Shown: in pieces, positions 1,058 to 33,220 of the stretch
How the letters are laid out: each line of letters begins with the position of its first letter
Position numbering within the stretch: the stretch's first letter is position 1
Assembly: GCA_963696385.1 (NCBI GenBank)
Contig: CAVOKF010000006.1
Location: 96,001-160,000, forward strand
Direction: 5' to 3'
From: an uncultured delta proteobacterium
GTDB lineage: Bacteria; Myxococcota_A; Polyangia; Polyangiales; Polyangiaceae
Length of the DNA stretch: 64,000 nucleotides
Notes under the pieces: model-generated
What the model was told of the DNA's origin: nothing
The model's input: the letters and a program-made list of their open reading frames with translations, nothing else
The model's database searches: none
Made by a program: the position numbers and the translations under genes

Positions 1058-1155
1058 CCGGTACGCCGTCGCGACTTTAGGCGAGTAGTTAGCCCAAAGC
1101 ACGTCGGTCGACGAAGAGCCGCGGAAGAGGGCGCGGAAACATATCGCGTCTTAGG

Positions 1156-3072
1156 CTGAAGTTCCTGAACCAAAATCGCCGAAGTTCGCGATCTTGCTGT
1201 GGAATCGGCAAAATTGACCCGAAATGTAGGCATGTACGACGATAGAAATAGCTTTCCATTATCGATTCGATGTGCATGATGCGGAGGCATGTACATCGCA
1301 ACCGTGCCGAACCGCGGCTCTCCACCGGCGATCCTGCTGCGCGAGTCGTATCGAGAGGGCGGACGGGTCAAGTCGCGCACGCTGGCGAACCTGTCGTCGT
1401 TGACGGAAAAGCAGGTGGAGGGGATGCGGCGAGCGCTCCGCGGGGAGCCCTTGTTTGGCCCGGACGGGCCGATCCGAAAGGTGCGCGACCAAAGCCACGG
1501 TGCGGTCGACGCCGTTCGGCAAGTCATTCGCAAGTTGGGGCTCGAGGTCCTCATCGACCGACAACCAAGCCGCCAGCGCGATCTGGTGATGGCCCTGTTG
1601 GTGGCGCGCATCACCGATGCCCAGAGCAAGCTCGCGACGACGAGGGCCTGGAAGACCACGACCCTGCCCGAAGACCTCGGGATCGCGGATGCGACCGAAG
1701 ATGACCTGTATGACGCCATGGATTGGCTCTTCGAGCGGCAGGACGCGATCGAGAAGAAGTTGGCGACGCGTCACCTGCGCCAGCAAGGGTTGGTGCTCTA
1801 CGATCTGTCATCGAGCTATTTTGAAGGACACCAATGTCCGCTTGCCAAGCTCGGATACAACCGCGATGGCAAGAAGGGCAAGCTGCAGGTCAACTATGGC
1901 CTTCTCACCGATGAACGGGGCTGTCCCATTGCGGTCCAGGTTTACGAGGGAAACGCATCCGATTCGACGACGCTCCTCGACCAGGTGGAGCGTGTTCGAT
2001 CCGACTTCGGGATTGACGGATTCGTGATTGTGGGTGACCGCGGGATGATCACGGAGAAACAGATTTCGTCGCTTCGCAAAACCGGTGGGATGACCTGGGT
2101 TACCGCGCTCAAGAGCGGTCGCATTCGATCCCTCGTGCACTCGGGCGTTCTGCAACTCGGACTCTTCGACGAACGCAATCTGTTTTCCGTGCGGGACCCA
2201 AAACTTGCCGGTGAGCGGTTGATCGCATGCAAGAACCACGATCTCGCACGATTGCGCGCACACAAGCGCCAGAGCCTTGTCGACGCGACACGCAAAGAAC
2301 TCGACGCGGTGCAGAGAATTGTGGCTCGCGGAAAGCTGGTGGGCAAAGCAGCGATCGGGCTACGGATCGGAAAAGTGATCAACAAGCATAAGGTGGCCAA
2401 GCACTTCTTACTCGACATCCATGATTCCACATTCGAGTATCGCCTCCGCGAGGATCGCATCGCAGAGGAGGCAGCACTCGACGGCGTATACGTGATTCGT
2501 ACGTCCTTGAGCCAAGAGTCGACCAGCGACGAACAGGCCGTTCGCCATTACAAGAAGCTCGCGAATGTCGAACGCGCATTCCGATCCATCAAGACGATCG
2601 ACTTGAAGGTGCGCCCCATTCACCACCACTTGGAAAACCGAGTCCGAGCGCACATCTTCCTGTGCACGCTCGCTTTCTACGTGGAGTGGCACATGCGCGA
2701 AGCGTGGCGACCGGTCCTCTTCTCGGACGAGGACCAGGCTGCCAAGAACACGAGAGACCCGGTCGCGCCGGCCACCCGGTCGCCCGGTGCACTCGATAAG
2801 GTCGCCACCAAGCGAAGCGAGGACGGGGCGCCCGTCCACAGCTTCCGTACCCTGCTCGCCGATCTCGCCACGATCACGCGAAGCACCTTCGCGCCCGTCG
2901 GAGCCGACAACGAAGGCCAGACTTTCACTATGCTGACCGTCCCGTCACCCGAGCAAGCGAGAGCCCTCCAGCTACTCGAAGCCATCGCCGTGTAGGCAGT
3001 AACTCAGGCCACGATTTCGACGAATCCAGGGAAAATACGCCGAATTGTGTCCCGGCGGGCGGGGAACTTCAG
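1156..3072 (+). mobile_element. IS1634-family insertion sequence
   Basis: Terminal IR CTGAAGTTCC / GGAACTTCAG, flanking direct repeat CTTAGG (1150-1155, 3073-3078), single transposase ORF. Confidence 0.9.
1289..2995 (+). CDS. IS1634-family DDE transposase
   Basis: Motifs 'LLRESYREGGRVKSRTLANLS', 'LYDLSSSYFEG', 'VGDRGM', 'YKKLANVERAFRSIK', 'RVRAHIFLC'. Confidence 0.92.
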   Translation: MYIATVPNRGSPPAILLRESYREGGRVKSRTLANLSSLTEKQVEGMRRALRGEPLFGPDGPIRKVRDQSHGAVDAVRQVIRKLGLEVLIDRQPSRQRDLVMALLVARITDAQSKLATTRAWKTTTLPEDLGIADATEDDLYDAMDWLFERQDAIEKKLATRHLRQQGLVLYDLSSSYFEGHQCPLAKLGYNRDGKKGKLQVNYGLLTDERGCPIAVQVYEGNASDSTTLLDQVERVRSDFGIDGFVIVGDRGMITEKQISSLRKTGGMTWVTALKSGRIRSLVHSGVLQLGLFDERNLFSVRDPKLAGERLIACKNHDLARLRAHKRQSLVDATRKELDAVQRIVARGKLVGKAAIGLRIGKVINKHKVAKHFLLDIHDSTFEYRLREDRIAEEAALDGVYVIRTSLSQESTSDEQAVRHYKKLANVERAFRSIKTIDLKVRPIHHHLENRVRAHIFLCTLAFYVEWHMREAWRPVLFSDEDQAAKNTRDPVAPATRSPGALDKVATKRSEDGAPVHSFRTLLADLATITRSTFAPVGADNEGQTFTMLTVPSPEQARALQLLEAIAV

Positions 3073-3182
3073 CTTAGGGGCTTCCGTTGTCACCGAGCGG
3101 CGAAAGATTGGATGGGGCGGCGGACGCGGGCGGGGACTGAACGAAGCGCGGGGCTACGACGGTACGAACGCGGAGGGTGCCC

Positions 3183-3272
3183 ATGGAAGCGATCTCACGG
3201 ACGATCCAGGTGGACGGTGCCGACATCTACGTCGCGGAGCGTGGGACCGGTGAGCCGCTCCTCCTGCATCAC
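3183..3272 (+). pseudogene. N-terminal fragment of an alpha/beta hydrolase
   Basis: 'IQVDGADIYVAERGTGEPLLLHH' matches the typical hydrolase N-terminus; similarity is lost after ~30 aa. Confidence 0.55.
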
Positions 3273-3614
3273 CGAACACCGCGACGACACGCGCAAGGAA
3301 GCGATCGAACACCAAGAGCTTCTTCTCGGGTCGCTTCGGGTCGGAGCTCAAATCGATTCGCCGTTCAGCGACGCTGGCCATACGGGACTGGCGCACCGTT
3401 ACCGGTCAGCGAAGACGCCGTCCGAACCCCTGCTTTCCCGACCCCGACCCCGACCCGCCAGTACGCCCGTAGCCGGACGCAATTCCTGCGGACGTCGGCA
3501 GATCGTTCGCGGAGTGCGGGCTCTGCGGAAAGCCGACCGCCACGAACGGCTCGCCCGATCGGGTCCCTCTCGTCTGCTCTCGCAGGCCCGACTCGTGCTT
3601 CGTTGCAGATCGAC

Positions 3615-4181
3615 ATGGCGCCGGGGCAGACGCGCACTCGCAAGGATCCGGCAGAGCGCGGCCACCTGCGTCTCTTCTACCGGGATTGGCGCCCTACGCG
3701 CCTCGGGCGGATCGTGAACGGAGCCTGGGCCTGGCTCTCCGGGATGGGCCTGACGTCGCAAATCTTGCTCGCACTGCAGGTGAGGGGCCGCAACACCGGT
3801 CTCGTTCGTACGACGGTACTCGTGCCTGTCGACTGCGATGGCCGGCGCTATCTCGTGTCGATGCTCGGCGAGGCTTCGGAGTGGGTGCGGAACGTCCGCG
3901 CCGCGGACGGAGAGGCCTTCATCAAGCGAGGCGCTCGCCGGCCGGTGCGACTCACCGAAGTGCCTCCTGGAGAGCGAGGTCCCATCCTCAAGGCCTACTG
4001 CCGCGTGGCTACCAGTGGGCGCCACCATTTCCCCGTTCCCGAGGACGCACCCCTCTCTGCGTTCGAGGAAATTGCCTCCGAGTATCCGGTCTTCCGCATC
4101 GACCCCGGATCGACCGTGACCCCAACTACCCAATCCCGACCCCGTGAACGCCGGCTGCCCCGCTTCCTGGCGGACCCGTGA
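3615..4181 (+). CDS. nitroreductase / deazaflavin-dependent oxidoreductase family protein
   Basis: 'LQVRGRNTGLVRTT', 'YLVSMLGEASEWVRNVRAA', 'YPVFRI' are typical split-barrel Ddn-like motifs. Confidence 0.75.
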   Translation: MAPGQTRTRKDPAERGHLRLFYRDWRPTRLGRIVNGAWAWLSGMGLTSQILLALQVRGRNTGLVRTTVLVPVDCDGRRYLVSMLGEASEWVRNVRAADGEAFIKRGARRPVRLTEVPPGERGPILKAYCRVATSGRHHFPVPEDAPLSAFEEIASEYPVFRIDPGSTVTPTTQSRPRERRLPRFLADP

Positions 4182-4716: not shown

Positions 4717-4729
4717 GGTTTCTCTCCTT

Positions 4730-9441: not shown

Positions 9442-9680
9442 TTACCGTCGAAAGCGCCCGGGGGAAAAATGCCCTCGTCGACCCTCGTGAGCCCAAGCAG
9501 CAGCCGCCCAATGCCTGCCGGGCCGCTCGAGCTCCCAGCGCCCTCCGTACCACACGCGACCGCGCGGTCCCCATGCCCAGTAGCCGGGGATCCAAAAGTG
9601 ATTCGGGGACGGGCGAAGAGGGGCGACTTCCAGCCGGCGAGGGCCCCGGGGCCAGTAAGCGCCCGGGGCTACTCGACAAG
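9442..9680 (-). pseudogene. WXXGXW-repeat protein, 5'-truncated at the repeat
   Basis: 'FWIPGYWAW', 'VWYGGRW' repeats; the N-terminus runs into repeat copy 2. Confidence 0.65.
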
Positions 9681-9682
9681 TG

Positions 9683-9767
9683 CGTCGGTCGACGAAAAGC
9701 CGCGGAAGCGGGCGCGGAAACATATCGCGTCTTAGGGGCTTCCGTTGTCACCGAGCGGCGAAAGATT
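9683..9767 (+). repeat. oriIS-like repeat, copy 2 (outer ~20 nt missing or replaced; IS110 inserted at inner end)
   Basis: CGTCGGTCGACGAAAAGCCGCGG...GAGCGGCGAAAGATT directly abuts the IS110 left end. Confidence 0.88.
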
Positions 9768-9981
9768 AGATGAACCGGTGGCGGCGCGTCCTGGACCGCC
9801 CGGCACGCCGCCCGGCACGGGTGCCGCAGCCTCGAGATCGATCGCGGGGCGTCTCGAGAGCAGCCCCCGTGCCGGTCGTCGGTCATCGAAAATAGCGACC
9901 GACCTCCCGCTGGATTATCCATCCGACACCCCCGCGTGCTCAAAGGCACAAAGCGAAGTGGGGGCCGAAGGGAGATCGATC

Positions 9982-11133
9982 ATGCGGAGCATAGGATTGG
10001 ATCTTGGAGCGCGCCACATTGCGTATTGCGAGATACGGAACGGAGAGGTCATCGATCGGACCTCTGTGAAGAGGCTGGACCAACTCAAGTCGCGAATCGG
10101 CCCCGACTGTCCACCTGCGCGGATTGCGTTTGATGCGTCGCGTGAAGGATGGCACGTGCACGATACCCTCACGTCGTGGGGGCACGATGCGAAGATGATC
10201 GATACGACGCGGGTGCGTGCGATGGGCGTCGCGCATCACAAGCGCAAAAACGATGCTCTCGATGCTGAGGCGGCCGCACGTGCCGTAGACCAAGGACGGA
10301 TCCCCGAGGCGCACATTCTGTCTCCCGCCCGCCGAGCCCTGCGCGCGCAGTTGAGCGTGCGCGGCGCGCTGGTCGAAACACGTGCGCAGTATGTGACGAC
10401 GATACGCGGGCTCGGGCGCGCGGCAGGCGTGCTCCTTCCCACATGCACAACCGAGAACTTTGTGAACAAGGTTCGCGAGAGCTCGCTCGACGACGCGACG
10501 AGCACGCTCATCGCGCCGCTCCTTGCCGTGCTCGTCGGAGTCGAAGAAGAGCTCACCAAGGTCGAACGGACGCTTTCGGAAATGGCGATGCGTGAGCCCA
10601 TCACGAAACTTCTCGCCACCGCTCCTGGCGTCGGCCTTATCGTGGCGTCCACCTTCGTTTCGGTGATCGACGAGGCGAAGCGCTTTCGCAATGCGCAGGC
10701 AGTCGGAGCGTACCTTGGTTTGGTGCCGTCGGAGTTGACGACAGGCGGACCTGAAAAGCGGCGCCTGGGCTCGATCACCAAGCAGGGCAACACGTATGCG
10801 AGAAAAATGCTCGTCCAAGCGGCGTGGCTCATCCTCAGGTCACGCGACATGGACGACCCGATTCGCCAGTGGGGCGACCGCATCGCCAAGACGCGAGGCA
10901 AGAGAATCGCCGTCATCGCCATCGCACGAAAACTCGCCGGCGTCCTCTGGGCGATGTGGCGCGACGGCACCGCTTACGATCCGGTGGGACAGGCCAAGGC
11001 GAGCGCAAAGGGCACTCGCAGAGAGGCTCGTTCGAAAAACGCGAATGCGGAGGCGCTCGAACGCTCCGCCAAGAAACTCCAACGGCGGGCTCCTCGCCGC
11101 AACAAGATTTCGGAGGACGTCGCCATGACATGA
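9982..11133 (+). CDS. IS110-family DEDD recombinase
   Basis: 'IGLDLG', 'KRKNDALDA', 'APGVG', 'YLGLVP...GG', 'GSITKQGN', 'AIARKLA'. Confidence 0.93.
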   Translation: MRSIGLDLGARHIAYCEIRNGEVIDRTSVKRLDQLKSRIGPDCPPARIAFDASREGWHVHDTLTSWGHDAKMIDTTRVRAMGVAHHKRKNDALDAEAAARAVDQGRIPEAHILSPARRALRAQLSVRGALVETRAQYVTTIRGLGRAAGVLLPTCTTENFVNKVRESSLDDATSTLIAPLLAVLVGVEEELTKVERTLSEMAMREPITKLLATAPGVGLIVASTFVSVIDEAKRFRNAQAVGAYLGLVPSELTTGGPEKRRLGSITKQGNTYARKMLVQAAWLILRSRDMDDPIRQWGDRIAKTRGKRIAVIAIARKLAGVLWAMWRDGTAYDPVGQAKASAKGTRREARSKNANAEALERSAKKLQRRAPRRNKISEDVAMT

Positions 11134-11523
11134 ATCGTCACGACTGTCTCCGATGCGCCTTGAGCGCGTAGCCTAAGAGCACCCCATCTGGAGGAACGTT
11201 GAACGCGACAAATTGGTAGAAGCTCTTGCGATCTCCGCTCCGGTGGAGACGTGACTGTACTTCGTGCGAAAAATTGCGTCTCGTTCCACCGCTTCGAATC
11301 CAAATCTACGTCTCGGGCCTTGGACGCGAACTTCGCTGCCCGATGAACGTGAAGAGTCAATCGAGAGGTAGCTCGCCAAGCCGCGCGTTCGGAGCGCTCC
11401 CCTTACTGTCACCGTGCTCCGGCGCCCTCAAGCGCCGAGAAGGGAAACGTCCATTGAATTCTAAGAACCCAGCTCACTCCGAAACGAAAAAAAGAAAACT
11501 CTCTGCGCGAAAACCCTTGCCCA
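11134..11523 (+). ncRNA. putative bridge/seek RNA region of IS110 copy A
   Basis: Stem GAGACGT (11246-11252) / ACGTCTC (11308-11314) encloses GCGAAAAATT (11266-11275) and CCAAATC (11300-11306), matching the target halves; exact RNA ends unknown. Confidence 0.72.
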
Positions 11524-11548
11524 CGCCACCGGTTCAGAGTCCGATTTG

Positions 11549-11810: not shown

Positions 11811-11856
11811 ATCGCGTCTTAGGGGCTTCCGTTGTCACCGAGCGGCGAAAGATTTG
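11811..11856 (+). repeat. oriIS-like repeat, copy 3 (inner half; empty IS110 target site)
   Basis: ATCGCGTCTTAGGGGCTTCCGTTGTCACCGAGCGGCGAAAGATTTG followed by G. Confidence 0.9.
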
Positions 11857-11921
11857 GCCAGCCCGGGACGCGAACGCGCGGGCGCTTGATCTTTCCCTCA
11901 ACGGGTCCGATGCTAGCCGCC

Positions 11922-12337: not shown

Positions 12338-12747
12338 GCCCTCAGCAGCTCCGGGGGAGCCCTGCCGCCATCCGCCGGAAGCAGTATCGGCTTCGTGAAT
12401 GGTCAGTCGGCGTGTCTCAGCGCGTCCAACTTCCGCTCGGAGGCTCGCGCCGAATCGCGTTGATCAGTCGCCCGGCGAGGCGAAACGGGCGGCCCGAGCT
12501 GCTGCCCATTACGCTTGAAGGATGTGGTGCGAGCGATCCGCGCGGCGGTGCCCATGGCGCGCGGTTCGTGCAGGAGGCATCGCCGTCCTCTTGGCACTCG
12601 TTGCCTTGGCTGTTTCCGGCGCGGTCTACAACTGGTTGGCAGTTCGACATCTTCGCAGCATCTACCCGCCTCCGGGCGAGTAGGAAACGAAAAGCGTGTC
12701 GGGCGATGAAGAGTCGCCGAAACCACCGCGGTCACATATAACCCGTT

Positions 12748-20800: not shown

Positions 20801-20817
20801 CACTCTCGTGGCCGCCC

Positions 20818-21068: not shown

Positions 21069-21079
21069 CGTGGTCCGGC

Positions 21080-22240: not shown

Positions 22241-22360
22241 GGCGATGGGCTCGCACCCGCGTGTGCTGCTGTAGCAGCAGGAACCCCGCAGCCGGTGCAC
22301 CCCTCGGCGCAGACGACGCGACGTGGGGTCGAGTCGCCTTCTTTTTGCGGCGATTGGGGC

Positions 22361-22376
22361 CGGCACAAAGCCTGCT
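22361..22376 (+). promoter_or_regulatory. sigma54-type -24/-12 motif upstream of sfnG
   Basis: CGGCACA-AAGC-CTGCT. Confidence 0.6.
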
Positions 22377-22427
22377 ACTGAGGCAGGGCGAAGGCGAGTG
22401 AACCGGACCTATCCGAAGGAGCGCACG

Positions 22428-23537
22428 ATGAGTACCGAGACGAGCACACGCGTAAACGAACCCATCAAGTTCGCCTACTGGGTTCCCAACGTGAGCGGGG
22501 GCCTGGTGATTAGCACGATCGAGCAGCGGACCGACTGGAGCCTCGACTACAACGTGAAGCTCGCCCGGCTCGCCGAAAACAATGGGTTCGACTACGCGCT
22601 GAGCCAGGTCCGTTACATGGCAAGCTACGGGGCGGAGTTCCAGCACGAGTCGACGACCTTCAGCTTCGCACTGCTCCAGGCGACGCAGCGGCTCAAGGTC
22701 ATCGCGGCCATCCACCCGGGCCTCTGGCATCCGGCCGTGCTCGCCAAACTCGTTGCCACGCAGGACCAGCTGAGCGGGGGCCAATCGGCCGTGAACGTCG
22801 TCAGCGGGTGGTTCAAAGGTGAATTCACCGCGCTCGGAGAGCCTTGGCTCGAGCACGATGAACGCTACCGGCGGTCGGAGGAATTCATCCGCGTGCTCCG
22901 GGGCAGTTGGACCGAGGACCATTTTTCATTCTCCGGCGACTTCTATCGCATCCATGGGTACAACTTGAAGCCGAAGCCCATCCAGTCCCCACACCCGGAG
23001 ATCTTCCAGGGCGGCACCTCTCGAGCGGCGCGCGACATGGCCGCTCGGGTCTCCGATTGGTACTTTTGCAACGGCAACACGGTCGAAGCGATCCAGGCAC
23101 AGGTCGACGACATCCGACGCAAAGCCGTCGAGGTCGGTCGGCGTCCGCCGAAGATTGGGATGAACGCGTTCGTCATCGCCCGCGACACGGAAGCCGAAGC
23201 GAAGAAGGTCCTCGACGACATCGTCAAGCATGCCGACCGCGAAGCGGTCAACGCGTTCGGCGACGCCGTGAAGCAAGCGGGCAGGGCGTCTCCCGAGGGT
23301 CAGGGCAATTGGGCCAATTCGACGTTCGAAGATCTCGTGCAATACAATGACGGCTTTCGGCCGGGATTGGTCGGTACACCGGATCAAATTGCCGATCGGA
23401 TAGCCGAATACAAATCCGTCGGGGTCGATCTGGTGCTCGCGGGATTTCTTCATTACCTGGAAGACGTCGAATACTTCGGCAAACGAATCCTACCGTTGGT
23501 GCGCGCGGCCGAGTCCAAGAATCGCGTCGCTGCTTAA
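22428..23537 (+). CDS. sfnG: dimethylsulfone monooxygenase
   Basis: 'IKFAYWVPNVSGGLVISTIEQRTDW', 'YGAEFQHES', 'FEDLVQYNDGF'; AAGGAG RBS. Confidence 0.9.
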   Translation: MSTETSTRVNEPIKFAYWVPNVSGGLVISTIEQRTDWSLDYNVKLARLAENNGFDYALSQVRYMASYGAEFQHESTTFSFALLQATQRLKVIAAIHPGLWHPAVLAKLVATQDQLSGGQSAVNVVSGWFKGEFTALGEPWLEHDERYRRSEEFIRVLRGSWTEDHFSFSGDFYRIHGYNLKPKPIQSPHPEIFQGGTSRAARDMAARVSDWYFCNGNTVEAIQAQVDDIRRKAVEVGRRPPKIGMNAFVIARDTEAEAKKVLDDIVKHADREAVNAFGDAVKQAGRASPEGQGNWANSTFEDLVQYNDGFRPGLVGTPDQIADRIAEYKSVGVDLVLAGFLHYLEDVEYFGKRILPLVRAAESKNRVAA

Positions 23538-23558
23538 GGTCCGGACGGCTTTTTGTTC

Positions 23559-24326
23559 ATGACCACCGCGCTGCTCGACGTTCAGAACGTATCGCTCGCA
23601 TTCGACGGCATTCTCGCCCTGGACGACGTGAGTTTCCGTGTCGCCCGGGGCGAGGTCTGCGCGCTCATCGGCCCCAACGGGGCGGGCAAGAGTTCGATGC
23701 TCAATGTCGTGAGCGGGCTCTACACGGCCAATGCCGGGGACGTCCTCTTCGAAGGCGAGCGACTCACGGGCGTCGGGGAGCTCGCGCGGCGAGGCATCGC
23801 CCGAACCTTTCAGAACATCGCTCTCTTTCGAGGTATGACCGTCCTCGAGAACGTGGCGCTCGGAACCGACTTCCGCGGTCGGGCGAGCTTTTTCGAGCAG
23901 GCTCTGCGAATCGGGCGAGCGCCGCGCGAGGAGCGCCGGATGCGGGAGGAAGCGGCCGTGGTCATGGACTTGCTCGACATCGCGAGCCACCGCACCGACG
24001 TGGTCGGACGGCTTCCGTACGGCCTGCAAAAGCGCGTGGAGCTTGCGCGCGCCCTCGTGCCGCGACCCAAGATGCTCCTGTTGGACGAGCCGATGGCGGG
24101 AATGACCGTCCACGAAAAGCGGGACATGTGCGGCTACCTCCTAGGTGCCCACGAGAAGCTCGGAACGACGGTCGTGCTCATCGAACACGACCTCGGGGTC
24201 GTGATGGACCTGTCGGATCACGTCATCGTGCTCGACTACGGCAAAAAGCTCGCGGACGGCACGCCCGACCACGTTCGTGCCGATCCCGCCGTCATCGAAG
24301 CGTACGTCGGTTCGTTCGCAACCTGA
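23559..24326 (+). CDS. Liv-type ABC transporter ATP-binding protein (LivG-like)
   Basis: Walker A GPNGAGKS, 'GIARTFQN', 'LLLDEP'. Confidence 0.9.
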   Translation: MTTALLDVQNVSLAFDGILALDDVSFRVARGEVCALIGPNGAGKSSMLNVVSGLYTANAGDVLFEGERLTGVGELARRGIARTFQNIALFRGMTVLENVALGTDFRGRASFFEQALRIGRAPREERRMREEAAVVMDLLDIASHRTDVVGRLPYGLQKRVELARALVPRPKMLLLDEPMAGMTVHEKRDMCGYLLGAHEKLGTTVVLIEHDLGVVMDLSDHVIVLDYGKKLADGTPDHVRADPAVIEAYVGSFAT

Positions 24327-24336
24327 GGACCCGCGG

Positions 24337-25218
24337 ATGTCGTTTTTCATCGAAGTGCTCCTCGGCGGCCTGCTCTCGGGCGTGATGTACACCATGGTCG
24401 CGATCGGGTTCGTGCTCATCTACAAGGCGTCGGGCGTGTTCAACTTTGCGCAGGGCGCGATGGTGTTGTTCGCGGCATTGACATTCGTGTCGTTGACGGA
24501 GCGTGGCTTTGCCTTTCCCCTCGCATTCATCGCGACGCTGGCCGCCATGCTCCTGCTCGCTCTGGCGATCGAGCGTATCGTGCTCCGCCCGCTCGTGAAC
24601 GCGCCACCCCTGTCGCTCTTTCTGGCGACACTTGGGCTCGCGTACATCCTGGAAGGTCTTGCCCAGACCCTGTGGGGCACGCAAGTGCACGGTTTGGACA
24701 TCGGGGTGTCGGACGCGCCCATCTCCGCGGCCGGTGTATCGGTCAGCCGATTCGATCTGTTCGCGGCGGGCACAGCGGCGACTCTCGTGGCCACACTCGC
24801 ACTCTTTTTTCGCCTGACGCGTTCGGGCGTCGCCCTCCGCGCCGTGGCCGACGACCCTCTCGCCGCCATCGCGGTCGGAATCGACTTGCGACGCCTTCTC
24901 GCGCTCGTGTGGGGCGTCGCAGGAGTCGTAGCCCTCGTGGCCGGCCTGCTTTGGGGGGCGCGCGTGGGGGTGCAGTTCTCTCTGTCGCTCGTCGTCCTCA
25001 AAGCGTTGCCCGTCCTCATCATCGGAGGCTTCTCGTCGATTCCCGGGGCGATCGTCGGTGGCCTCATCGTGGGCGCCTCGGAGAAGCTGGCCGAAGTCTA
25101 CGCAGGCCCGTGGGTGAACGGCGGCATCGAAACCTGGTTTCCGTATTTCATTGCGCTCGCGTTTCTCCTCGTTCGTCCGGCGGGGCTTTTTGGCGAGCGA
25201 TCGGTGCAGCGAGTCTGA
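24337..25218 (+). CDS. Liv-type ABC permease (LivH-like)
   Basis: 'LIYKASGVFNFAQG', multiple TM segments, 'RPAGLFG'. Confidence 0.9.
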   Translation: MSFFIEVLLGGLLSGVMYTMVAIGFVLIYKASGVFNFAQGAMVLFAALTFVSLTERGFAFPLAFIATLAAMLLLALAIERIVLRPLVNAPPLSLFLATLGLAYILEGLAQTLWGTQVHGLDIGVSDAPISAAGVSVSRFDLFAAGTAATLVATLALFFRLTRSGVALRAVADDPLAAIAVGIDLRRLLALVWGVAGVVALVAGLLWGARVGVQFSLSLVVLKALPVLIIGGFSSIPGAIVGGLIVGASEKLAEVYAGPWVNGGIETWFPYFIALAFLLVRPAGLFGERSVQRV

Positions 25219-25220
25219 TC

Positions 25221-26312
25221 ATGCGGATCGAAGCGACCCCCTGGTCCGAACCGAACACGTCGACGCCTCCGCCGCGCACCAGCCTGTTCGCGAGAGCGTC
25301 CGGGCGCGCCGTCGTCCGGATTGCATTGGCGGCGGGGGGGACCGGCCTCCTGCTGGTGCTGCCACTTCTCGTCGACGACTACGTGCTGAGCGCCGTCCTC
25401 GTGCCGCTTCTCGCCCTGTCGCTCGCTGGCATCGGGCAAAACTTCGTGACCGGCTACGCCGGGCAGCTGTCGGTCGGGTCAGCCGCATTCATGTCCGTGG
25501 GCGCATTCGCGGCATACGACCTGCATCTGCACCTACACGGTACGCCTCTGCTCGTGTCTTTGGCGTTCGGCGGCGTCTCGGCAGCCGCTGCGGGTGCCTT
25601 GTTCGGCTTGCCGAGCCTGCGTATCCGGGGCTTTTACCTGGTCGCGTCCACGCTCGCGGCGCAGTTCTTCGTCGAATGGTTGTTCACGAAGGTCGGCTGG
25701 TTTTCGGGCAACAGCGCATCCGGCGTGATCACGGCCCCCCCGCTTTCCATCGCCACGGTCGACCTGTCGTCACCCGGGGGTCACTACTGGCTGTCGCTTC
25801 TCGTCGTCGCCCCGTTGACGGCTGCTGCCTACAACCTGGCTCGCGGGCGCATTGGACGTGCGTGGATGGCGGTACGCGACATGGAGACGGCCGCCGCCGT
25901 GGTCGGCGTCCGCACCGGTCAGGCCAAGCTGCTCGCCTTCGCCATCGGCTCGTTTTATTGCGGCGTGGCCGGGGGACTTTGGGCGTTTGCGTATCTCGGC
26001 ACGGTGGAGCCCCACGGCTTCGACCTCGATCGTTCGTTTCAAATTCTATTCATCGTGATTGTGGGGGGTCTCGGCAGTATCGCGGGCAGCTTTCTGGGGG
26101 CCGCGTTCATCGTGTTGTTTCCGATCTTCTTGGACCAACTGGCAACGTTCGTAATGGGCGGGTCGGTCGATCCGGGCGTATTGCAAAATATCGACAAAAT
26201 CATCTTCGGTGGGCTCGTGATTGCTCTTTTGGCAAAACAGCCCGCCGGCCTCGCCCGCCTGATCGAGATCGCGTGGCTGCGCGCTCGTCGCTGGACGCTG
26301 CGATCCGCCTGA
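25221..26312 (+). CDS. Liv-type ABC permease (LivM-like)
   Basis: 'GYAGQLSVG', 'LRIRGFYL', 'GRAWMAVRD', 'IVGGLGS'. Confidence 0.9.
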   Translation: MRIEATPWSEPNTSTPPPRTSLFARASGRAVVRIALAAGGTGLLLVLPLLVDDYVLSAVLVPLLALSLAGIGQNFVTGYAGQLSVGSAAFMSVGAFAAYDLHLHLHGTPLLVSLAFGGVSAAAAGALFGLPSLRIRGFYLVASTLAAQFFVEWLFTKVGWFSGNSASGVITAPPLSIATVDLSSPGGHYWLSLLVVAPLTAAAYNLARGRIGRAWMAVRDMETAAAVVGVRTGQAKLLAFAIGSFYCGVAGGLWAFAYLGTVEPHGFDLDRSFQILFIVIVGGLGSIAGSFLGAAFIVLFPIFLDQLATFVMGGSVDPGVLQNIDKIIFGGLVIALLAKQPAGLARLIEIAWLRARRWTLRSA

Positions 26313-26396
26313 CGTCATCCTAAAACAATAGACCCTCAAAGTCCTCGTGACGAAAACCGTGATAGCGCGCCGCAAGGCGCGTTCGGAGGTCCATCC

Positions 26397-27803
26397 ATGC
26401 TTCGTACCCGCGCACCTGGTTTTGTCCCTTTCCTCGCGGCGGCACTGCTGACCACAGCATGCCGGTCGCGCTCGGAGAACGCGTCGGCTGCCGTCCTCGC
26501 GAGCCCGGCGCCGGGCACCGTGAGCCCCGGGAAGGAGTCAGCGGGCAAAGAGCAATATTTTCCGCTTCAGAGCTATCGCGTCGGGCCGTATGCCGCCGGT
26601 GGAAGTGGATTCTTCGGCGGCTTCATCGACTACATGCAGCTCGTCAACATTCGCGACGGAGGCGTCAATGGCATCAAGCTGACCTGGTCGGAATGCGAGA
26701 CCGAATACGTGGTCGAGCGCGGGGTCGAGTGCTACGAGCGACTGAAGGGCGGTCTCAACGGAGCGCCCGCCGCGGCGATGAATCCACTCAGTGTAGGGAT
26801 CGCGTACGCGCTCATCGACAAGGCCACGACGGACAAGATTCCCCTGATCACGATCAATCACGGAAGAACGGATTCGACCGACGGACGAGTCTTTCCCTAC
26901 GTGTTTCCCTTGTCGCTCAACCCCTACAGCGAAATCTCGGCGATCGTCAACTACATCGGTCAACGTTCGGGCGGCCTCGACCACCTGCGGGGCAAGAAGA
27001 TCGCGGTTCTCTATCACGGCTCCCCTTATGGCAAGGAGACCCAGCCGATCGTCGAACTCCTCGCGCAGAAATACGGATTCGCGTCCACTCACCTCGAGGT
27101 GCCCCACCCTGGCACCGAGCAAGAGTCGCAGTGGCTGCAGATCAAGAAGCTCGCCCCTGACTGGATCATCTTGCGCGGGTGGGGAATCATGAACCCCGTC
27201 GCGCTCAAGAACGCCGCCAAGATCGGATATCCGGTCGACCATATCATCGGCAACATCTGGAGCAACTCCGAGGAAGACGTCATTCCGGCCGGCGCAGCCG
27301 CAACGGGGTTCATCGCCATTACGACGCATCCCTCGGGACGCCAGTTTCCCGTCCTCCAGGACGTGGACAAGTACGTCCTTTCGGCGGGCAAAGGGAATAT
27401 GACCGACCCGAAGCGGGTGGGCACCGGGTATTATAATCTGGGGATCAACAACGGCATCTTGAACGTCGAAGCCGTGCGCGTGGCTCAAGCGAAGTTCGGC
27501 AACAAGCCTCTGACCGGAGAGCAGGTTCGGTGGGGGTTCGAGCACATTCACATCGACGACGCGCGTCTCAAGGAATTGGGTGCCGTGGGGCTGCTCCAGC
27601 CGATCGAACTGTCGTGCTCCGATCACGAAGGCGGGGGGGCGGTACGGTTCGAGCAATGGGATGGCAAGGAGTTCAAGGTCATCAGCGATTGGATCAAAGC
27701 CGATCGCGCTCTGTTGCGTCCGATCATCGAAGCCTCGTCCACCAAATACGCCACTGAAAAGGGTATTGCGGTTCGCGACTGCGATGCCGAAGCTCGACTC
27801 TGA
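26397..27803 (+). CDS. Liv-type ABC substrate-binding lipoprotein
   Basis: Lipobox-like 'LTTAC', 'YRVGPYA', 'DGGVNGIKL..ECETEY'. Confidence 0.88.
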   Translation: MLRTRAPGFVPFLAAALLTTACRSRSENASAAVLASPAPGTVSPGKESAGKEQYFPLQSYRVGPYAAGGSGFFGGFIDYMQLVNIRDGGVNGIKLTWSECETEYVVERGVECYERLKGGLNGAPAAAMNPLSVGIAYALIDKATTDKIPLITINHGRTDSTDGRVFPYVFPLSLNPYSEISAIVNYIGQRSGGLDHLRGKKIAVLYHGSPYGKETQPIVELLAQKYGFASTHLEVPHPGTEQESQWLQIKKLAPDWIILRGWGIMNPVALKNAAKIGYPVDHIIGNIWSNSEEDVIPAGAAATGFIAITTHPSGRQFPVLQDVDKYVLSAGKGNMTDPKRVGTGYYNLGINNGILNVEAVRVAQAKFGNKPLTGEQVRWGFEHIHIDDARLKELGAVGLLQPIELSCSDHEGGGAVRFEQWDGKEFKVISDWIKADRALLRPIIEASSTKYATEKGIAVRDCDAEARL

Positions 27804-27871
27804 GACGGAGCTCCGGAGACGAAGCGGAACCGAGGGCCGTCCGCCCTCCACCCATAAAGAGGGTAAGGCCC

Positions 27872-28681
27872 ATGGTCGCAGAGGATCCGTTGCTCGCACT
27901 CAACGCGGTCGAAGTCGTGTACGACGAGATTGTCGTCGCTCTTCGCGGCGTTTCTCTCGAGGTTCCCGAGCACGGCATCGTGGCTTTGCTCGGGGCGAAC
28001 GGTGCCGGCAAGAGCACGACGCTCAAGGCTGCGTCGGGGTTGCTGACGGCCGAGCGGGGACGCGTCCGGGCGGGGTCCATTTCGTTTTTGGGCCGACCGA
28101 TCGCGGCGCGCAGCCCCGTACAACTCGTGCGTGAGGGCCTCGTGCAGGTGTTGGAAGGAAGGCACTGCTTTCCGCATCTGACCGTCGACGAAAACCTGGC
28201 CACCGGCACGTATGCGCGCCGTCCGTCGCGCGCAGCGTTGCGCCAGTCGCTCGACCGGGTCTACGCGCGCTTCCCACGACTCCGAGAGCGGAGAACGAGC
28301 GCGGCTGGCCATCTCTCCGGGGGCGAGCAGCAGATGCTGGCCATCGGTCGGGCACTCGTGGCCGAGCCCCGCCTCGTGCTGCTCGACGAACCCTCGATGG
28401 GCCTTGCGCCCAAGGTAGTGGAGGAAATTTTCGTTCTCGTGCGGCAGCTGCATGAACAGGATGGGGTGGCCTTCCTGCTTGCGGAGCAAAACGCCGCGGC
28501 GGCGCTCGCCGTCGCCGACACCGCGTACGTTCTCGAGACCGGCCGCGTCGTCACCGGGGGCACCGTCGCGGAGATTCGGGCACGGGACGACGTCCGGGAC
28601 CTGTACCTGGGGGGCAGCAGCGGACAGCGAGCCAGCTTCCGCCCGAGAGTCGAGGGGTCTGCACTGCAGTCCCCGCATTGA
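27872..28681 (+). CDS. Liv-type ABC ATP-binding protein (LivF-like)
   Basis: GANGAGKS, LSGGEQQM, LDEPSMGL. Confidence 0.9.
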   Translation: MVAEDPLLALNAVEVVYDEIVVALRGVSLEVPEHGIVALLGANGAGKSTTLKAASGLLTAERGRVRAGSISFLGRPIAARSPVQLVREGLVQVLEGRHCFPHLTVDENLATGTYARRPSRAALRQSLDRVYARFPRLRERRTSAAGHLSGGEQQMLAIGRALVAEPRLVLLDEPSMGLAPKVVEEIFVLVRQLHEQDGVAFLLAEQNAAAALAVADTAYVLETGRVVTGGTVAEIRARDDVRDLYLGGSSGQRASFRPRVEGSALQSPH

Positions 28682-28726
28682 GCCGGGCCCCGCATCGTAG
28701 CGGGGATCCGGCAAGGAGAGGAATCG

Positions 28727-30112
28727 ATGACCATTCGTCACAAGGCGATCGCGCCCATCGCGATCGCAGGGGCAATCTCCATGTGCGCGCACGCCGCGCG
28801 AGCCCAAACCTCTTCGGCCGGCGCCGAGGCACCAGCGCGCGAGCCCGCGAGCACGCCGCAGGCGACGCCGGGGCCCACGAGCCCCGTGGAGGCGACGCCG
28901 ACGCCGTCGAGCTCCGGAGGCGCGACACCGACGGGCGCACCGGCGGCGATCCCCGCGCCCACGAGCCCCGCCGCGGCTCCAGGGGTCAAAACGGCAACCG
29001 CACCTGCATCGGGGCCAGCGTCGCCTGGCCAGCCGACGGCCACCGCAGCCGAGCCGACGGTTCACGCCAACGAGCACGAGGGACTGAGTAGTCAGGGAGC
29101 TGCGCCCGCATTGGCCACTCCTGCCGTTCCCGAATGGATGAAGTGGATGAGAGGGGTGACGATCGGAGCGGGCGTACTTCTCTGGTACTACCAACCAATT
29201 CACGTCCCTGGCGTAGAAAACGACGTGAGTGTCTTCTGGGCCAGGCTCCTCGTCGACGGCAAGTGGGGCATCTTCGGCCTGCACCTCGAACCGCGCTTTC
29301 GCGACACCAAGCTGCGTCCCTTTTTCGACGGACCCGCATGGCTTCAGGAGGCGTACGCATCCGCCGATTTCGGGAACACGCAGCTGCGGGTGGGCAAGAC
29401 CTACAGCCGATTGGGACTCTTCTGGTACACGTCTTTCTACGGAAATGTCCAGGTGTACGACGGGCTCAAATTGGACCCCGATTATGGGGCGACGCTCCAG
29501 GGCGATCTGGGAAAGGCAACCGATCCGGTCAGCCTAGGCTGGTGGCTTCAATACTTCGTCGTCGATGGCTCGACGAACGTGTCGCTCGAGAATCGGGACA
29601 CGATCTCCTACGCAGGGGCTCGCCGCCGCAATCAAGTCATCGGTCGAGTGGAGCCGCGATTTGCATTCGGCCCGGCCAAGCTCGCGCTGGGTGCCTCCGG
29701 GGAGTACCTGGAGGCGACGGGCCTGCCGTCGCTCGATGCCCAAAATGTCTGGCGTGCGGCCGCCGACGCCACGTTCACGGTCGGTGACCTTGTGGTACGA
29801 GGCGAATACCTCCATCAGGGAGGTCTCACCGTAGCCAACTTCCCGTACACGGGTCGGCCGTCGGGCAACAACGATTACGTTTTGGCGGGAGCTGAATACA
29901 CGATCGGGCCGGTGACCGGCGTTTATACGTTCAGCCTGGGCAGCTACAACGATGTCTCGTATAAGGAGACGATGCACGTGCCCGCGATCAGCGTCGCCGT
30001 GAGCTCGAACATTTCGCTCCTCGGCGAGCTCGTGTTCTGGTCGAGCACGTCGCCGACGGGCAGCTCGCTCATCGATCGGAGTTTCAACGTCACGCTGCAT
30101 GCCCATCTTTAG
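28727..30112 (+). CDS. putative outer-membrane beta-barrel (porin-like) protein
   Basis: Signal peptide, Pro/Ala/Thr linker, alternating aromatic beta-strands, C-terminal strand 'FNVTLHAHL'. Confidence 0.65.
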   Translation: MTIRHKAIAPIAIAGAISMCAHAARAQTSSAGAEAPAREPASTPQATPGPTSPVEATPTPSSSGGATPTGAPAAIPAPTSPAAAPGVKTATAPASGPASPGQPTATAAEPTVHANEHEGLSSQGAAPALATPAVPEWMKWMRGVTIGAGVLLWYYQPIHVPGVENDVSVFWARLLVDGKWGIFGLHLEPRFRDTKLRPFFDGPAWLQEAYASADFGNTQLRVGKTYSRLGLFWYTSFYGNVQVYDGLKLDPDYGATLQGDLGKATDPVSLGWWLQYFVVDGSTNVSLENRDTISYAGARRRNQVIGRVEPRFAFGPAKLALGASGEYLEATGLPSLDAQNVWRAAADATFTVGDLVVRGEYLHQGGLTVANFPYTGRPSGNNDYVLAGAEYTIGPVTGVYTFSLGSYNDVSYKETMHVPAISVAVSSNISLLGELVFWSSTSPTGSSLIDRSFNVTLHAHL

Positions 30113-30641
30113 GTGAATCGCGCACTCGGCCCTTGCGGGACACAGACAGCCCTTTCGCTGGCGGGTGGATGCCGACTTCTTGCAAGAAGACGACTCCGCG
30201 CGCCGGCGAGAGGCGCTTCAGGCGGGGGCCGCACTCGCTGACGCGCACGGTTTCCGGGGCGCGAGCCCTGGGTCGCCCGCACCGTGCTGGAGCTCGTGAC
30301 CGTACAGCCCGAGGCCCGCCGTCCCGCGAAACGACGGCACGTATGCAAGCCGTTTTCCCCTGAGGGGCCCGGCTGTTTCGGCCATCGATGCCGACGGGAA
30401 CCCCTCGGAGGGTCCTCGCCGTTGGCGAGGCCGCAGGCCAGGGCCACCCACGGCGCCGTACGGGGTCAGAACCCAGCGGCCGGCCGTTTCGGGGCGGGTG
30501 CAGTACACCCGAAGGATGCACCCCGACGACCGACTCGTGGGGGACGACCGGTCGGGTGCTTCCGACCTTTCAGATTGAGATCCGGGGTGGTTGCGCGGTC
30601 AACGGACCCCTTCCCTGCCCGGCGCAGCGCGACTGACCGCC

Positions 30642-31883
30642 TCAACTCCATGCGTGAAGCGGCGGATTGACCCCGTTGAGGTAGTAATTGCCGAGGATTG
30701 CGTACTTCCAGCGGACCGGATCGTGAAGGGTGTGCGTGCGAGCGTTTCGCCAATGCCGATCGAGGGCGTGCTCGGCCAGCGTCGATCGGGTGCCGGCGAG
30801 CTCGAAAATCTTGTTGGTGGCCAGAATGGCCAAGTCGGTCGAAAAAATCTTGGCTTTGGCCACTTCGATTTGCGCTTCGGCGACCGTTTGGGTAGTGGGC
30901 TCCGCCACGGCGCGGTCCACCGCGCGCCCCGCCCCGTCGAGCAACGCCTGGGTCGCGCTCAATCGGAGCTCGAGGTCGCCAATCGCCTGAATCGTGTACG
31001 GATCGGCGGTCGCCGCCTCCACACCGCTATCGACCCAGGCTCGAGTTTTCGTCTTCACGAATTCGATCGTGTCCTCGATGGCGGCCCGAGCGATGCCGGT
31101 GTCGACGGCGGCCTGGATAATCTGGAAGATCGCGCCGTCGGCGGTCGGGTGGTCGTACCCTTTGTAGCCGGGAACCAGGTGCGTCTTTGGTACCTTGACG
31201 TCTTTGAGCAGCACCGTTCCGCTGAGGGTGGTGCGCTGTCCAAAACTCGACCAATCGTCGATGACGCTCAAGCCGGGCGCATCCCGCTCGGCGATCGCGT
31301 ACCAGGCCCTACCCTGATCATCGAGCGCCACAATGGGCACGAGGTGCGCGAGTAGCGCGCCGGTCGCGTAAAACTTCCGGCCGTTGACGAGCACGTGGTC
31401 GCCCTTGTCGTCGAAGTGCGTCTCGAAGTCGACCGCGCGCTTCGACCCGTATTCGGAAAACGCGTTGCCGAACCGAAGGCCGCGGAGGACTGCGGCAAAC
31501 AAGAGCTTCTGCTGGGCCGGATCCGAAACGGTACGAATCGCGGCCACAACGCCGAGATGATTCTGCGGAATCTGACCGAGCGACGGGTCTGCGGCCGAGA
31601 TGATTTCGATGACGCGCGAGAGTGTGACGTACGACACTTCGGGCCCGCCGAACGTCTTTGGCACATTGATGGACCAGAGACCGCTCTGCGAAAAATCATC
31701 GAGTTCTTCGAGCGGTCGCCGCCGTGTTCGGTCCCGCTCGGCGGCGCCTTTGGCAAACTTCTGGGCGAGCTCCCGCGCGACGGCGATGGCTTCTCGATCG
31801 TCACGAATGATGTGCGCGGGGTGTTTGGGGCGGGCCACCGCCGGCACGGGCTCGGTGGCATTCTGCGAGGAAGCGCTGGTCAT
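30642..31883 (-). CDS. sfnB: SfnB-family sulfur-acquisition oxidoreductase
   Basis: 'HIIRDDREAIAVAREL', 'ADPSLGQIPQNH', 'DDWSSFGQRTT', '[19 protein letters not shown]'. Confidence 0.85.
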   Translation of the reverse strand: MTSASSQNATEPVPAVARPKHPAHIIRDDREAIAVARELAQKFAKGAAERDRTRRRPLEELDDFSQSGLWSINVPKTFGGPEVSYVTLSRVIEIISAADPSLGQIPQNHLGVVAAIRTVSDPAQQKLLFAAVLRGLRFGNAFSEYGSKRAVDFETHFDDKGDHVLVNGRKFYATGALLAHLVPIVALDDQGRAWYAIAERDAPGLSVIDDWSSFGQRTTLSGTVLLKDVKVPKTHLVPGYKGYDHPTADGAIFQIIQAAVDTGIARAAIEDTIEFVKTKTRAWVDSGVEAATADPYTIQAIGDLELRLSATQALLDGAGRAVDRAVAEPTTQTVAEAQIEVAKAKIFSTDLAILATNKIFELAGTRSTLAEHALDRHWRNARTHTLHDPVRWKYAILGNYYLNGVNPPLHAWS

Positions 31884-31906
31884 GGAACGTCTCCGCAACG
31901 GACGCA

Positions 31907-31922
31907 AGCATCGGCCGTGCCA
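31907..31922 (-). promoter_or_regulatory. sigma54-type -24/-12 motif upstream of sfnB
   Basis: TGGCACG-GCCG-ATGCT on minus strand. Confidence 0.7.
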
Positions 31923-32166
31923 CGGCAACTGGATACGGCGACGCACGAAAAGGCGGGCCCTGGGCGTTGCTGTGCACCCGCAGGTGATGAGCCTCGAGCA
32001 GCGAGTGTTGGCGGACTGCTGCTGGACGCGCAAACGGCCCGCCGCCGCGAGGTGGCGAGGCGAGCGAAGGTTAAGATTCCTTTGGCAACGTCCGCTGTCG
32101 TTGAAACGCAGACCCATCGGCAGTCCCTTGAAGCGGTCCGCGTAGCCGCGCGGCGGCGGTGTCCGC

Positions 32167-33111
32167 TCACTGAGACACGAGCGCGTACATGGCAAAGGTA
32201 CCGGGATTGTTCGCCACAATGAGCTTGGGCGTTTTCCACTGACCGGCAACCAGCCGCGTGTGATACGGCACATACATACCGGACGACTGCGGGGAGCCCC
32301 CGAAGACGACCTCGGCCGTGGCGGTTCCGACTCCCGCCGCGAGTCCCACCTGGGCGGAATCGATGGTGTCCAGCCCCCACGATGCAAAGACCGTCGTTGC
32401 GGTCGACCAATTCGTTCCGTCGAACTGCGAAACATAGGCGTATTGGTTCACCGAGATGAACGCGAGAATGGCTTGGCCATCCGGCAGCGCCAGCATCGGT
32501 GTGGCAAAACTCGGGCTGGGGCTGTCGCCCGCGCCCATGTTCGGCCGGTTGGGATCAGTGTTGTCGACCTTGGTCGGCAACCCAAAATCCTGGACGGTCG
32601 ACCAAAGGCTTGCCGTCCGGGTGGCAAAGTGCAAGTCGGACATGGCGCTATCGGTGTAGACGACCATGAGCTCAGCACCTGTTCCGCTGAGAGCGATCAG
32701 ACTGGGAGCAAACGATGAGGTCGCGGCCGCCGACGCAGTCCCGGATTCGATCACAGTCTCGGCACCCCATGTGCCGTTGGTGCGGTCCACGGCGACCAAC
32801 GCGCCGTCGGCAGACCGAACGTAGGCCACTGTGGCGTCCGCCCCGCGTGCCGCGATGCTGGGCGCGCCCCCCGTCAGCGCCCCGATCTTGGTCACGGTCG
32901 ACCACGAGCCGGTGGCTCGCGCCGCACTCGATTCGGCCTTCGTGCCGTCGCCGGCAAAGGCGATCTCCGGGGATGTCGAACCCACGGTCAGCGACGGGGC
33001 GCCGGAAGCGGTCACTGCGGGGCCGATGGCAGCAAATGGCGCCCATGTGCCGGCCGCCCAGGTCGCGAATTGAACGGGCCCCGATGCCCCTGTCACGTCC
33101 GCTGCATCGGG
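32167..33111 (-). pseudogene. 5'-truncated secreted beta-propeller-like protein
   Basis: Repeated 'G.WS'/'APSI/L' blades; coding-like sequence begins exactly at the outer end of repeat copy 8. Confidence 0.65.
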
Positions 33112-33220
33112 CGAGTAGTAAGCCCAAAGCACGTCGGTCGACGAAGAGCCCGCGGAAGCCACCGCGGAAACATATCGCGTCTTAGGGGCTTCCGTTGTCA
33201 CCGAGCGGCGAACCGATTTG
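33112..33220 (+). repeat. oriIS-like repeat, copy 8 (native position downstream of the IS91-like transposase)
   Basis: Outer end 176 nt past the transposase stop; on the coding strand it ends GCTTTGGGCTTACTACTCG, resembling IS91/ISCR oriIS termini. Confidence 0.85.

Follow-up and report, generated by a model that had tools for sequence, protein, structure and literature searches.

Introduction

Insertion sequences (ISs) of the IS91/ISCR family have attracted attention chiefly as vehicles for resistance and virulence genes in proteobacteria, and the pick-up of genes by these elements has been argued largely from sequence contexts. Several systems are close to the one considered here. IS801 of Pseudomonas syringae pv. 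phaseolicola gives rise to miniature fragments by one-ended transposition; right-end fragments of 229, 360 and 679 nt, bounded by a tetranucleotide, made up 26% of events, and DNA lying past the left end is picked up by the element as well (PMC3189936). An engineered mini-IS91, composed of 89 bp of terIS and 82 bp of oriIS followed by CTTG, transposes with the enzyme supplied in trans (PMC13181058), and the oriIS of ISCR1, the right end downstream of the transposase, is given as the 22-mer GTGGTTTATACTTCCTATACCC (PMC13023784). Here we describe a related arrangement in a myxobacterium of the Polyangiaceae, based on a stretch of 64,000 nucleotides (G000:C6:96001-160000, hereafter the window) in which a sequence of about 111 bp, referred to as the module, recurs both at the end of an IS91-like element and as orphan copies standing apart from any transposase gene.

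The window comes from a 6.94-Mb assembly (66% G+C, 8 contigs) of an uncultured organism whose relatives are named Polyangiaceae and Sorangium. Our analysis suggests that the orphan modules probably arose by one-ended rolling-circle transposition of a 2.0-kb element, that a block of DNA bounded by modules was mobilised in the same way, and that the further mobile elements seen within the modules are secondary insertions.

The Module and its Parent Element

A complete IS91/ISCR-family element of 2.0 kb occupies positions 33111..35114 (minus strand), as judged from Pfam domains, motifs and the comparison of copies. Its gene tnpA (33288-34997, minus strand) encodes a transposase of 569 aa with the two domains that characterise the family, an N-terminal zinc-binding domain (Pfam Zn_Tnp_IS91, 62.3 bits against a cut-off of 26.3; E = 4e-17) and a Y2 HUH catalytic domain (Y2_Tnp, 85.2 bits against a cut-off of 20.9; E = 7e-24). 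The motifs HFH and YRLKY can be read in the translation, and the best NCBIfam profile is that of ISCR clade Ia (286 bits), followed by transpos_IS91 (96.9). Its domains and motifs mark the predicted transposase as an HUH enzyme that has a zinc finger and a pair of catalytic tyrosines.

A search with tblastn detected seven copies or fragments of this transposase in the genome. All six transposase 3′ ends carry the module about 68 nt past the stop codon; homology between them stops at ...CTACTCGC, and the outer flanks differ. The module is also attached to one diverged transposase remnant and to the single copy examined from another Polyangiaceae metagenome-assembled genome (1/1), so that the association of the repeat with IS91-like genes, proposed in an earlier sequence-only reading of the window, holds elsewhere. 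Comparing 4-7 copies defined the ends of the element. Symmetries were read by eye from the alignment: the module has two dyads, one of them CCGCGG-N6-CCGCGG (for which compensated variants occur) and the other CGTCG-AC-CGACG, and a single dyad lies at the left end. This left, terIS-side end (35097-35114, minus strand) starts GACCGCTGCGGTGGCCGC and has the subterminal palindrome GCGG-TGG-CCGC. The element therefore has the two unlike ends of the IS91/ISCR family, with oriIS 3′ of tnpA and a terIS with one palindrome upstream, and the dyad arrangement described for the ends of IS91 and IS801 matches that of the module and left end here (PMC13181058). The tip of one module subfamily, TTTGGACTTCCTATTCACC, has ACTTCCTAT in common with the published 22-mer of the ISCR1 oriIS. 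This comparative evidence identifies the module with the oriIS-side (right) end of the 2.0-kb rolling-circle element, as the sequence-only reading had surmised, and copy 8 (33111..33220, minus strand; 33110-33220 by profile) represents this end in the complete element of the window.

The same observations bear on the idea that the module is an independent small element, similar to a MITE (miniature inverted-repeat transposable element) or a REPIN, which has its own enzyme and beside which the IS91-like element merely inserts. Full-length modules outnumber transposase copies (45 against about 7), and the inner end of the module has an imperfect palindrome of its own, GGTTCG...CGAAC. However, the same spacing at six of six transposase 3′ ends with different outer flanks, the resemblance of the outer tip to a published oriIS, and the presence of a transposase-linked copy in every module subfamily all argue against it, as does the structure of the module itself: unlike a classical MITE it shows no target duplication, and its termini, CAAATCGG... 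and ...CTACTCGC, do not form an inverted repeat. We regard an independent element as highly improbable. The transposase-linked copies rather fit repeated production of modules from full-length parents.

Past the left end of the element, the DNA at 35115..35524 (minus strand) travels with three of the four copies that have a left end, reaching 35377 in copy C4b and 35524 in copy C4a, so that 262-410 bp are held in common. This variable extent is the signature expected of one-ended transposition. Carriage of DNA beyond terIS and shortened right-end products, which together characterise that process, are both seen here as sequence signatures only. Just upstream of the left end, an open reading frame with a ribbon-helix-helix (CopG) domain (35216-35947, minus strand) accompanies three of the four copies, and further paralogues of it were found at 69-93% identity.

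Distribution and Boundaries of Orphan Modules

A profile built from 30 full-length genomic copies was run against the whole genome, alongside a repeat search. The resulting tabulation, of the kind that the sequence-only reading had proposed, gave 103 matches to the module (E-values as low as 1e-33), among which 45 span its full length, and both junctions are recurrent; chance matches are excluded. Eight copies lie in the window, six on one strand and two on the other, and the profile places them within 2-11 nt of where they had been reported. Genome-wide, the matches are concentrated in IS-rich islands, many of them at contig ends. Among the 41 genomes searched, this one included, the module is present in two, the other being that of a sister species (G003, at least 21 matches), and this restriction to two species points to recent mobility. 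Segments of the islands are common to both genomes at 99.9-100% identity. The module matches no curated RNA family, since a scan of the whole window with Rfam at gathering scores returned only a tRNA (41446-41519), and RNAalifold with DNA parameters found no stable consensus fold on either strand among 40 distinct full-length copies (-0.7 and 0.0).

Alignment of the full-length copies with their flanks indicated that most are orphans whose two ends are sharp and whose flanking DNA is unrelated on either side, which agrees with the orphan modules of fixed ends recognised before. Counting unique ends only and reading on the transposase-sense strand, the inner end starts CAAATC in 47-50 of 50 cases, with a pyrimidine before it in 48 of 50, and the outer end is invariant to ...CTACTCGC or ...CGC in 66 of 66, so that neither boundary is scattered. 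In the parent element, the position corresponding to the inner boundary of the orphans lies 111 nt inside and is preceded by GTT or GGT. The first base beyond the outer end is C in 45 cases, T in 17, A in 2 and G in 2 (n = 66), and positions +2 to +8 are unbiased. A paralogue spans the breakpoint at 21 distinct outer junctions, and at 18 of them the last base agrees with the paralogue; it must then count as flank, which puts the actual boundary at ...CTACTCGC|Y. On the opposite strand, this outer boundary reads R|GCGAGTAG. The inner boundary, on the transposase-sense strand, is Y|CAAATC. The outer boundary previously given as GG|CGAGTAG thus stands as a recurrent end, except that its outermost G belongs to the flank, giving G|GCGAGTAG. 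The outer end is presumed to be the nick site. No direct repeat was found in the flanks of the aligned full-length copies, and searches within the genome turned up no pair of empty and filled sites for a whole element.

The reverse polarity, with the module as terminator and the left end as origin, had been considered because the conserved flank base seemed to sit on the left. It was rejected, given that the outermost base is flank at 18 of 21 junctions and that the tip resembles a published oriIS.

Copies of the module are mosaic. Copy 2 of the window and the copy at C7:1434088-1434180 match in their outer part and flank (98-99%) and have inner halves of different subfamilies, and in a copy at C4:1025696 the inner and outer halves come from two different subfamilies. 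Recombination between module copies is, as read from these chimeric sequences, real. Such mosaics lend weight to a second alternative, in which the orphans are immobile leftovers of IS91-like elements, their flanks result from recombination among about 100 modules and from deletions by ISs, and the block discussed below was trimmed in place on a transferred island; the island segments common to both species are likewise in keeping with it. However, random deletion would not give one inner boundary in 50 ends, preceded by a pyrimidine in 48. By analogy with IS801 and IS91, we infer that the orphans are miniature right-end derivatives of an IS91/ISCR-type element. Among the listings and passages that they returned, our literature searches brought up no description of a high-copy miniature element of about 110 bp in the IS91 family.

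A Block of 12.9 kb Bounded by Modules

A case for the movement of neighbouring DNA is a block of 12.9 kb at 20193..33110 (no strand assigned), which contains genes for an ssuD-like monooxygenase, acyl-CoA dehydrogenases and others and ends in a truncated beta-propeller gene. On one side it adjoins the inner end of an orphan module (copy 7), on the other the outer end of the complete element, and these two have the same orientation. Over 12,922 bp the block is 99.93% identical to a locus of the sister species (G003:C62), and the similarity ends exactly at both module termini. At that locus the ssuD-like and beta-propeller genes are uninterrupted, and no module is present on the 33.5-kb contig; the outer boundary of copy 8 (33110/33111) is thereby fixed against the intact locus. 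The flanks of the block in the sister species are collinear with C7:516-545 kb of the genome studied here at 86-93% identity, and the counterpart of the block that this genome carries there (C7:523-528 kb) reaches 92% identity. The flanking DNA of the sister species is itself missing from this genome, apart from this orthologous locus (94%), and other matches between the window and the sister genome, outside shared IS elements, range from 87 to 95%. An uninterrupted form of the block, with 4 differences, occurs on a 15.9-kb contig from a peat metagenome. The gene truncations noted in the sequence-only reading are real, with the propeller gene cut at 33110 and the ssuD-like gene at 20193 when compared with the intact locus, a group II intron reverse transcriptase cut at 14975/14976 and an IS4-family element at 11549.

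Read on the strand with GCGAGTAG, each of the two breakpoints of the block is preceded by a G. Breakpoints that fall exactly on module termini, each with this G, speak against trimming in place. A further hint of capture comes from C7, where a copy of window 5989-9767 abuts the inner end of a module at the point where the window has none. Recombination between modules cannot make this junction at 5989, since the sister copy lacks a module. We therefore consider it unlikely that the orphans are passive debris, and gene capture by a module-bounded unit appears to be supported at least once, by the block 20193-33110. The proposal that DNA adjacent to modules is captured cargo is accordingly upheld for one block, in a single case with a donor-type locus. 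Public sequencing runs contribute little on the assembly of the junctions: 20 runs contain about half of the words of 32600-33800, and over 19600-33900 the short-read contigs of four runs extend across the block until they end or diverge at 20192 and 33110, with no module junction bridged; as short-read contigs break at repeats, they neither support nor refute the assembly.

Between copies 1 and 2, the region 3110-9677 is a patchwork of paralogues of 88-94% identity to scattered loci (C7:448 kb, C7:393 kb, C5:709 kb, C7:238 kb). It was not counted as evidence of capture, as no module lies at its seams.

Insertions Within the Module

IS110/IS1111-family elements insert site-specifically into repeats or into the ends of other transposons. 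In the window, an IS110-family element of the RNA-guided type (18412..20186, plus strand; Pfam DEDD_Tnp_IS110 and Transposase_20) is inserted in copy 7 with GATT on both sides, and another (9768..11541, plus strand) in copy 2, while repeat and genome comparison identified an inverted fragment of an IS110 right end at 17573..18105 (minus strand). Assignment to the family follows from the DEDD and Transposase_20 domains together with the site-specific insertion, and the 462-aa protein scores 216.7 bits against NCBIfam transpos_IS110 (cut-off 140). All six left ends join the same module site, with the junction GCGAAAGATT|AGATGAACC (the element beginning AGATG) 8 nt from the inner end of the module.

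This constancy favours the model of the sequence-only reading, in which cargo is joined to the inner point by an IS110 recombinase and then moved by the HUH enzyme, so that an array resembling an integron would form without IntI. The absence of IntI was borne out, as no integron integrase (TIGR02249) reached the cut-off in the whole genome (best score 68.5 bits against 265). However, at 10 of 12 right ends the element reads ...CAGAGTCC (GAGTCC) and is followed by GATT TGG, with flank only afterwards; as these are the last nucleotides of the module, the cargo junction is simply its ordinary inner end. Copy 7 runs from its outer end to the insertion point (18305..18411, minus strand) and has its last nucleotides, GATTTG, at 20187-20192, and copy 2 (9678..9767, minus strand), in which about 20 nt of the outer end are missing, continues as CGATTTGG at 11542-11549. 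The inner ends of these two copies, those starting at 9683 and 18307 in the earlier account, had been placed at the IS110 junction and in fact lie past the element, at 11549 and 20192. Moreover, at the C7 counterpart of window 5989-9767 (98-99% identity) this module lacks an IS110 and reads GGCGAACGATTTGG, an empty site, and most orphans with this inner boundary have no IS110 nearby. Nor do the modules form arrays with polarity: neighbours within 20 kb have the same orientation in 42 cases and opposite orientation in 32 (p = 0.30), and an integron-like array, which would have IntI with attI and attC cassettes in one orientation, is therefore not supported. Loading by the IS110 recombinase seems hardly credible to us in view of these junctions, which indicate that IS110 is a plain site-specific insertion into the module. 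A search for guide-like matches between the non-coding ends of IS110 and its target gave only matches of 7 nt, such as CCAAATC in the right non-coding region.

Two further observations concern these copies. Head to head with the truncated outer end of copy 2, about 12-15 nt of the outer tip of a second module lie at 9660-9682 (...GGGGCTACTCGAC|AAGTGCGTCGG). Some modules (window 14881-14899 and 17580-17598; C4:1135720-1135733) have lost their own inner end and show there just the final 19 nt of an IS110 right end, which looks like the scar of an internal IS110 deletion between short CCGGTG repeats. Copy 5 (14882..14975, plus strand; 14899-14975 by profile) is such a case, being inverted and having its inner 19 nt replaced in this way.

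Three other kinds of element use the module as well. Copy 1 (minus strand) is split into an outer part at 1081..1155 (1080-1155 by profile) and an inner part at 3073-3112 (3069-3109 by profile) by an IS1634-family element (1156..3072, plus strand; Pfam DDE_Tnp_1), which encodes a 568-aa transposase at 1289-2995 (NCBIfam transpos_IS1634, 327.8 bits, cut-off 100), is flanked by a 6-bp duplication, CTTAGG, and occupies the same module position at a second genomic locus. Copy 4 (minus strand) is likewise split, into 12675..12747 and 14224-14267 (to 14262 by profile), by an IS4-family element (~12748-14223) with a 445-aa transposase (NCBIfam transpos_IS4_1, 181.5 bits, cut-off 115). A 263-bp end fragment of the IS4 family, cut at 11549 (11549-11810), precedes copy 3 (11811..11857, minus strand; to 11856 by profile), of which only the inner half is present. 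IS4-family elements always occupy one and the same module position, where they are accompanied by a 10-bp duplication; as at least three subfamilies of the module are hit, and both orientations occur, the insertions are independent. About half of their copies sit in modules, and this distribution suggests a strong target preference. One IS4-family copy has 386 bp on each side (C7:1434134-1434519 and C7:1435996-1436381) that are 100% identical, far above the normal duplication length.

The fourth element is a group II intron, of which the 3′ part lies at 14976..15772 (plus strand), with a reverse transcriptase fragment (Pfam RVT_1) and domains V/VI at 15698-15773 (39 bits with Rfam RF00029, E = 7e-6, slightly short of its gathering score, 40). 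At 14976 the outer end of copy 5 truncates it, and its own 3′ end adjoins copy 6 (15773..15860, plus strand), which is present from profile position 21 onward. The same junction at profile position 21 was found at C7:1356928-1357814 and C2:75943-76831, in two subfamilies, so that the module may be a homing site of the intron. Much of window 9.6-20.2 kb is consequently nested IS and intron debris, and several “cassettes” that had been taken for cargo in this region are better described in these terms.

Other repeats of the window lie past the complete element. A repeat of 1444 bp (35753-37196) has at least four other copies at 99.9-100% identity and is presumably another insertion sequence; the open reading frames of it that were tested matched no Pfam or NCBIfam family. 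Two tandem arrays, one at 37269-37790 with a unit of 23/45 nt (CGACACC.ACCGACGTCCATC-like) and one at 50764-51268 with six copies of a 71-nt unit, are unrelated to the module.

A Scenario for Orphan Formation and Capture

We suggest the following scenario, in analogy to IS801 and IS91. Rolling-circle transposition of the parent element would start at oriIS and stop early at an internal pseudo-terminator, giving an orphan of 111 nt. An orphan oriIS could then be fired by transposase supplied in trans, and at least two transposase copies in the genome appear to have an intact reading frame. From there, replication would proceed into the DNA on the inner side of the orphan until it meets a terIS or a look-alike, so that this DNA is carried along in one-ended transposition. 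In the window, the candidate unit comprises the orphan module at 18305, the 12.9-kb block and the complete element at 33111-35114, all in the same orientation. Its history could have begun with the insertion of an orphan module into the ssuD-like gene of a genome resembling that of the sister species, followed by insertion of the complete element into the propeller gene in the same orientation, and by rolling-circle copying from the orphan origin through the block to the terminator of the complete element. The IS110, IS4 and IS1634 elements and the group II intron would be secondary insertions at fixed positions of the module, with recombination between module copies adding further shuffling.

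Several points weigh against this scenario, and it should be interpreted with them in mind. The NCBIfam scores of the transposase are below the curated cut-offs (96.9 against 125 for IS91 and 286 against 925 for ISCR clade Ia), and the target tetranucleotide of IS91/ISCR elements (CTTG, GTTC and similar) was not found next to oriIS at the 66 unique ends. No orphan was seen as a simple insertion, since the flanks are adjacent elsewhere in the genome for none of the 45 full-length copies; a search for the continuation of the paralogue within 40 kb on each side, made for 19 flanks of full-length copies, found only multicopy IS copies, and at 27 distinct junctions with a paralogue through the breakpoint the other module flank never continues that paralogue (tested for these 19 flanks). 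Rearrangement after insertion must therefore be common, and the lack of simple insertions also suits an origin of the orphans as debris, as does a retrospective analysis of IS801, which traced most genomic fragments to reorganisation and not to one-ended transposition (PMC3189936). The mixed orientation of neighbouring modules given above is a further point of this kind, and only one block has an identified donor-type locus. Finally, the source is an uncultured peat or soil organism from the same kind of habitat as the native locus, and the island might belong to another strain. In that case capture would stand, with the block as a duplication inside a single lineage instead of an interspecies transfer. 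One-ended transposition remains in our view the probable origin of the orphan modules and of the mobilised block.

A more far-reaching possibility is that the orphan modules are a working platform for capture in trans, which moves kilobase-scale segments between myxobacterial species and at the same time serves as a landing site that organises the mobilome of the islands. We put this forward as a tentative and rather doubtful extension. If it were true, any orphan could start rolling-circle replication of whatever DNA adjoins its inner side, and an RNA-guided IS110 recombinase would find a safe landing site in the same 111-bp sequence as two DDE insertion sequences and a group II intron.

No new kind of machinery is revealed by this locus. 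What sets this case apart from the IS801 miniatures and the ISCR elements is the single size class of 111 nt, the number of about 100 copies, the inner motif of CAAA type, the myxobacterial host and the use of the module as a landing site by four mobile elements. An environmental myxobacterium thus offers a natural high-copy population of uniform orphan origin ends; the 12.9-kb block has an uninterrupted source locus, against which both breakpoints can be read to the nucleotide, and four mutually unrelated mobile elements have their own fixed insertion points within this one 111-bp unit. Together these make the locus a convenient system for testing the mobilisation of an orphan oriIS, the site of termination, and the choice of repeated targets by the RNA-guided IS110.

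Comparison With Known Systems

The behaviour of the IS110 elements in this genome is similar to that of IS110/IS1111 elements that insert into repeats, at one fixed point of a repeated mobile sequence and in one orientation; unlike in other IS110 targets, the point used here is the inner end of an origin module of the IS91 family.

The orphan modules are most similar to the miniatures of IS801, which also consist of the right (origin) end only, have a fixed short inner motif and need transposase in trans, and in both systems DNA beyond the left end of the element is carried as well. They differ in having one dominant size of 111 nt instead of 229, 360 and 679 nt, and in their number of about 100 genomic copies, whereas the IS801 study found no genomic copies of the 360- and 679-nt products. 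The inner motif is CAAA and not of the GAAC type, the host is a myxobacterium, and mobility is deduced here from the arrangement of the sequences.

With the ISCR elements, as represented by ISCR1 and ISCR2, the parent element has in common a Y2 HUH transposase, an oriIS downstream of the gene, a similar terminal sequence and apparent mobilisation from a single end (PMC13023784, PMC6218425, PMC13181058). However, ISCR1 is described as being without terIS and as tied to class 1 integrons and resistance genes, while here a terIS is present and the cargo consists of ordinary metabolic genes, and there are many orphan copies of oriIS, all of uniform length. Like the engineered mini-IS91, the module is short, has no transposase gene and includes the origin end; unlike it, the natural module has no true left end and no conserved tetranucleotide past its outer end. 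A likeness by description is to the non-autonomous Helitrons and Helentrons, which have a Rep-helicase fusion, other ends and eukaryotic hosts, and in which rolling-circle transposition is likewise accompanied by non-autonomous copies that outnumber the autonomous ones and by the pick-up of host gene fragments.

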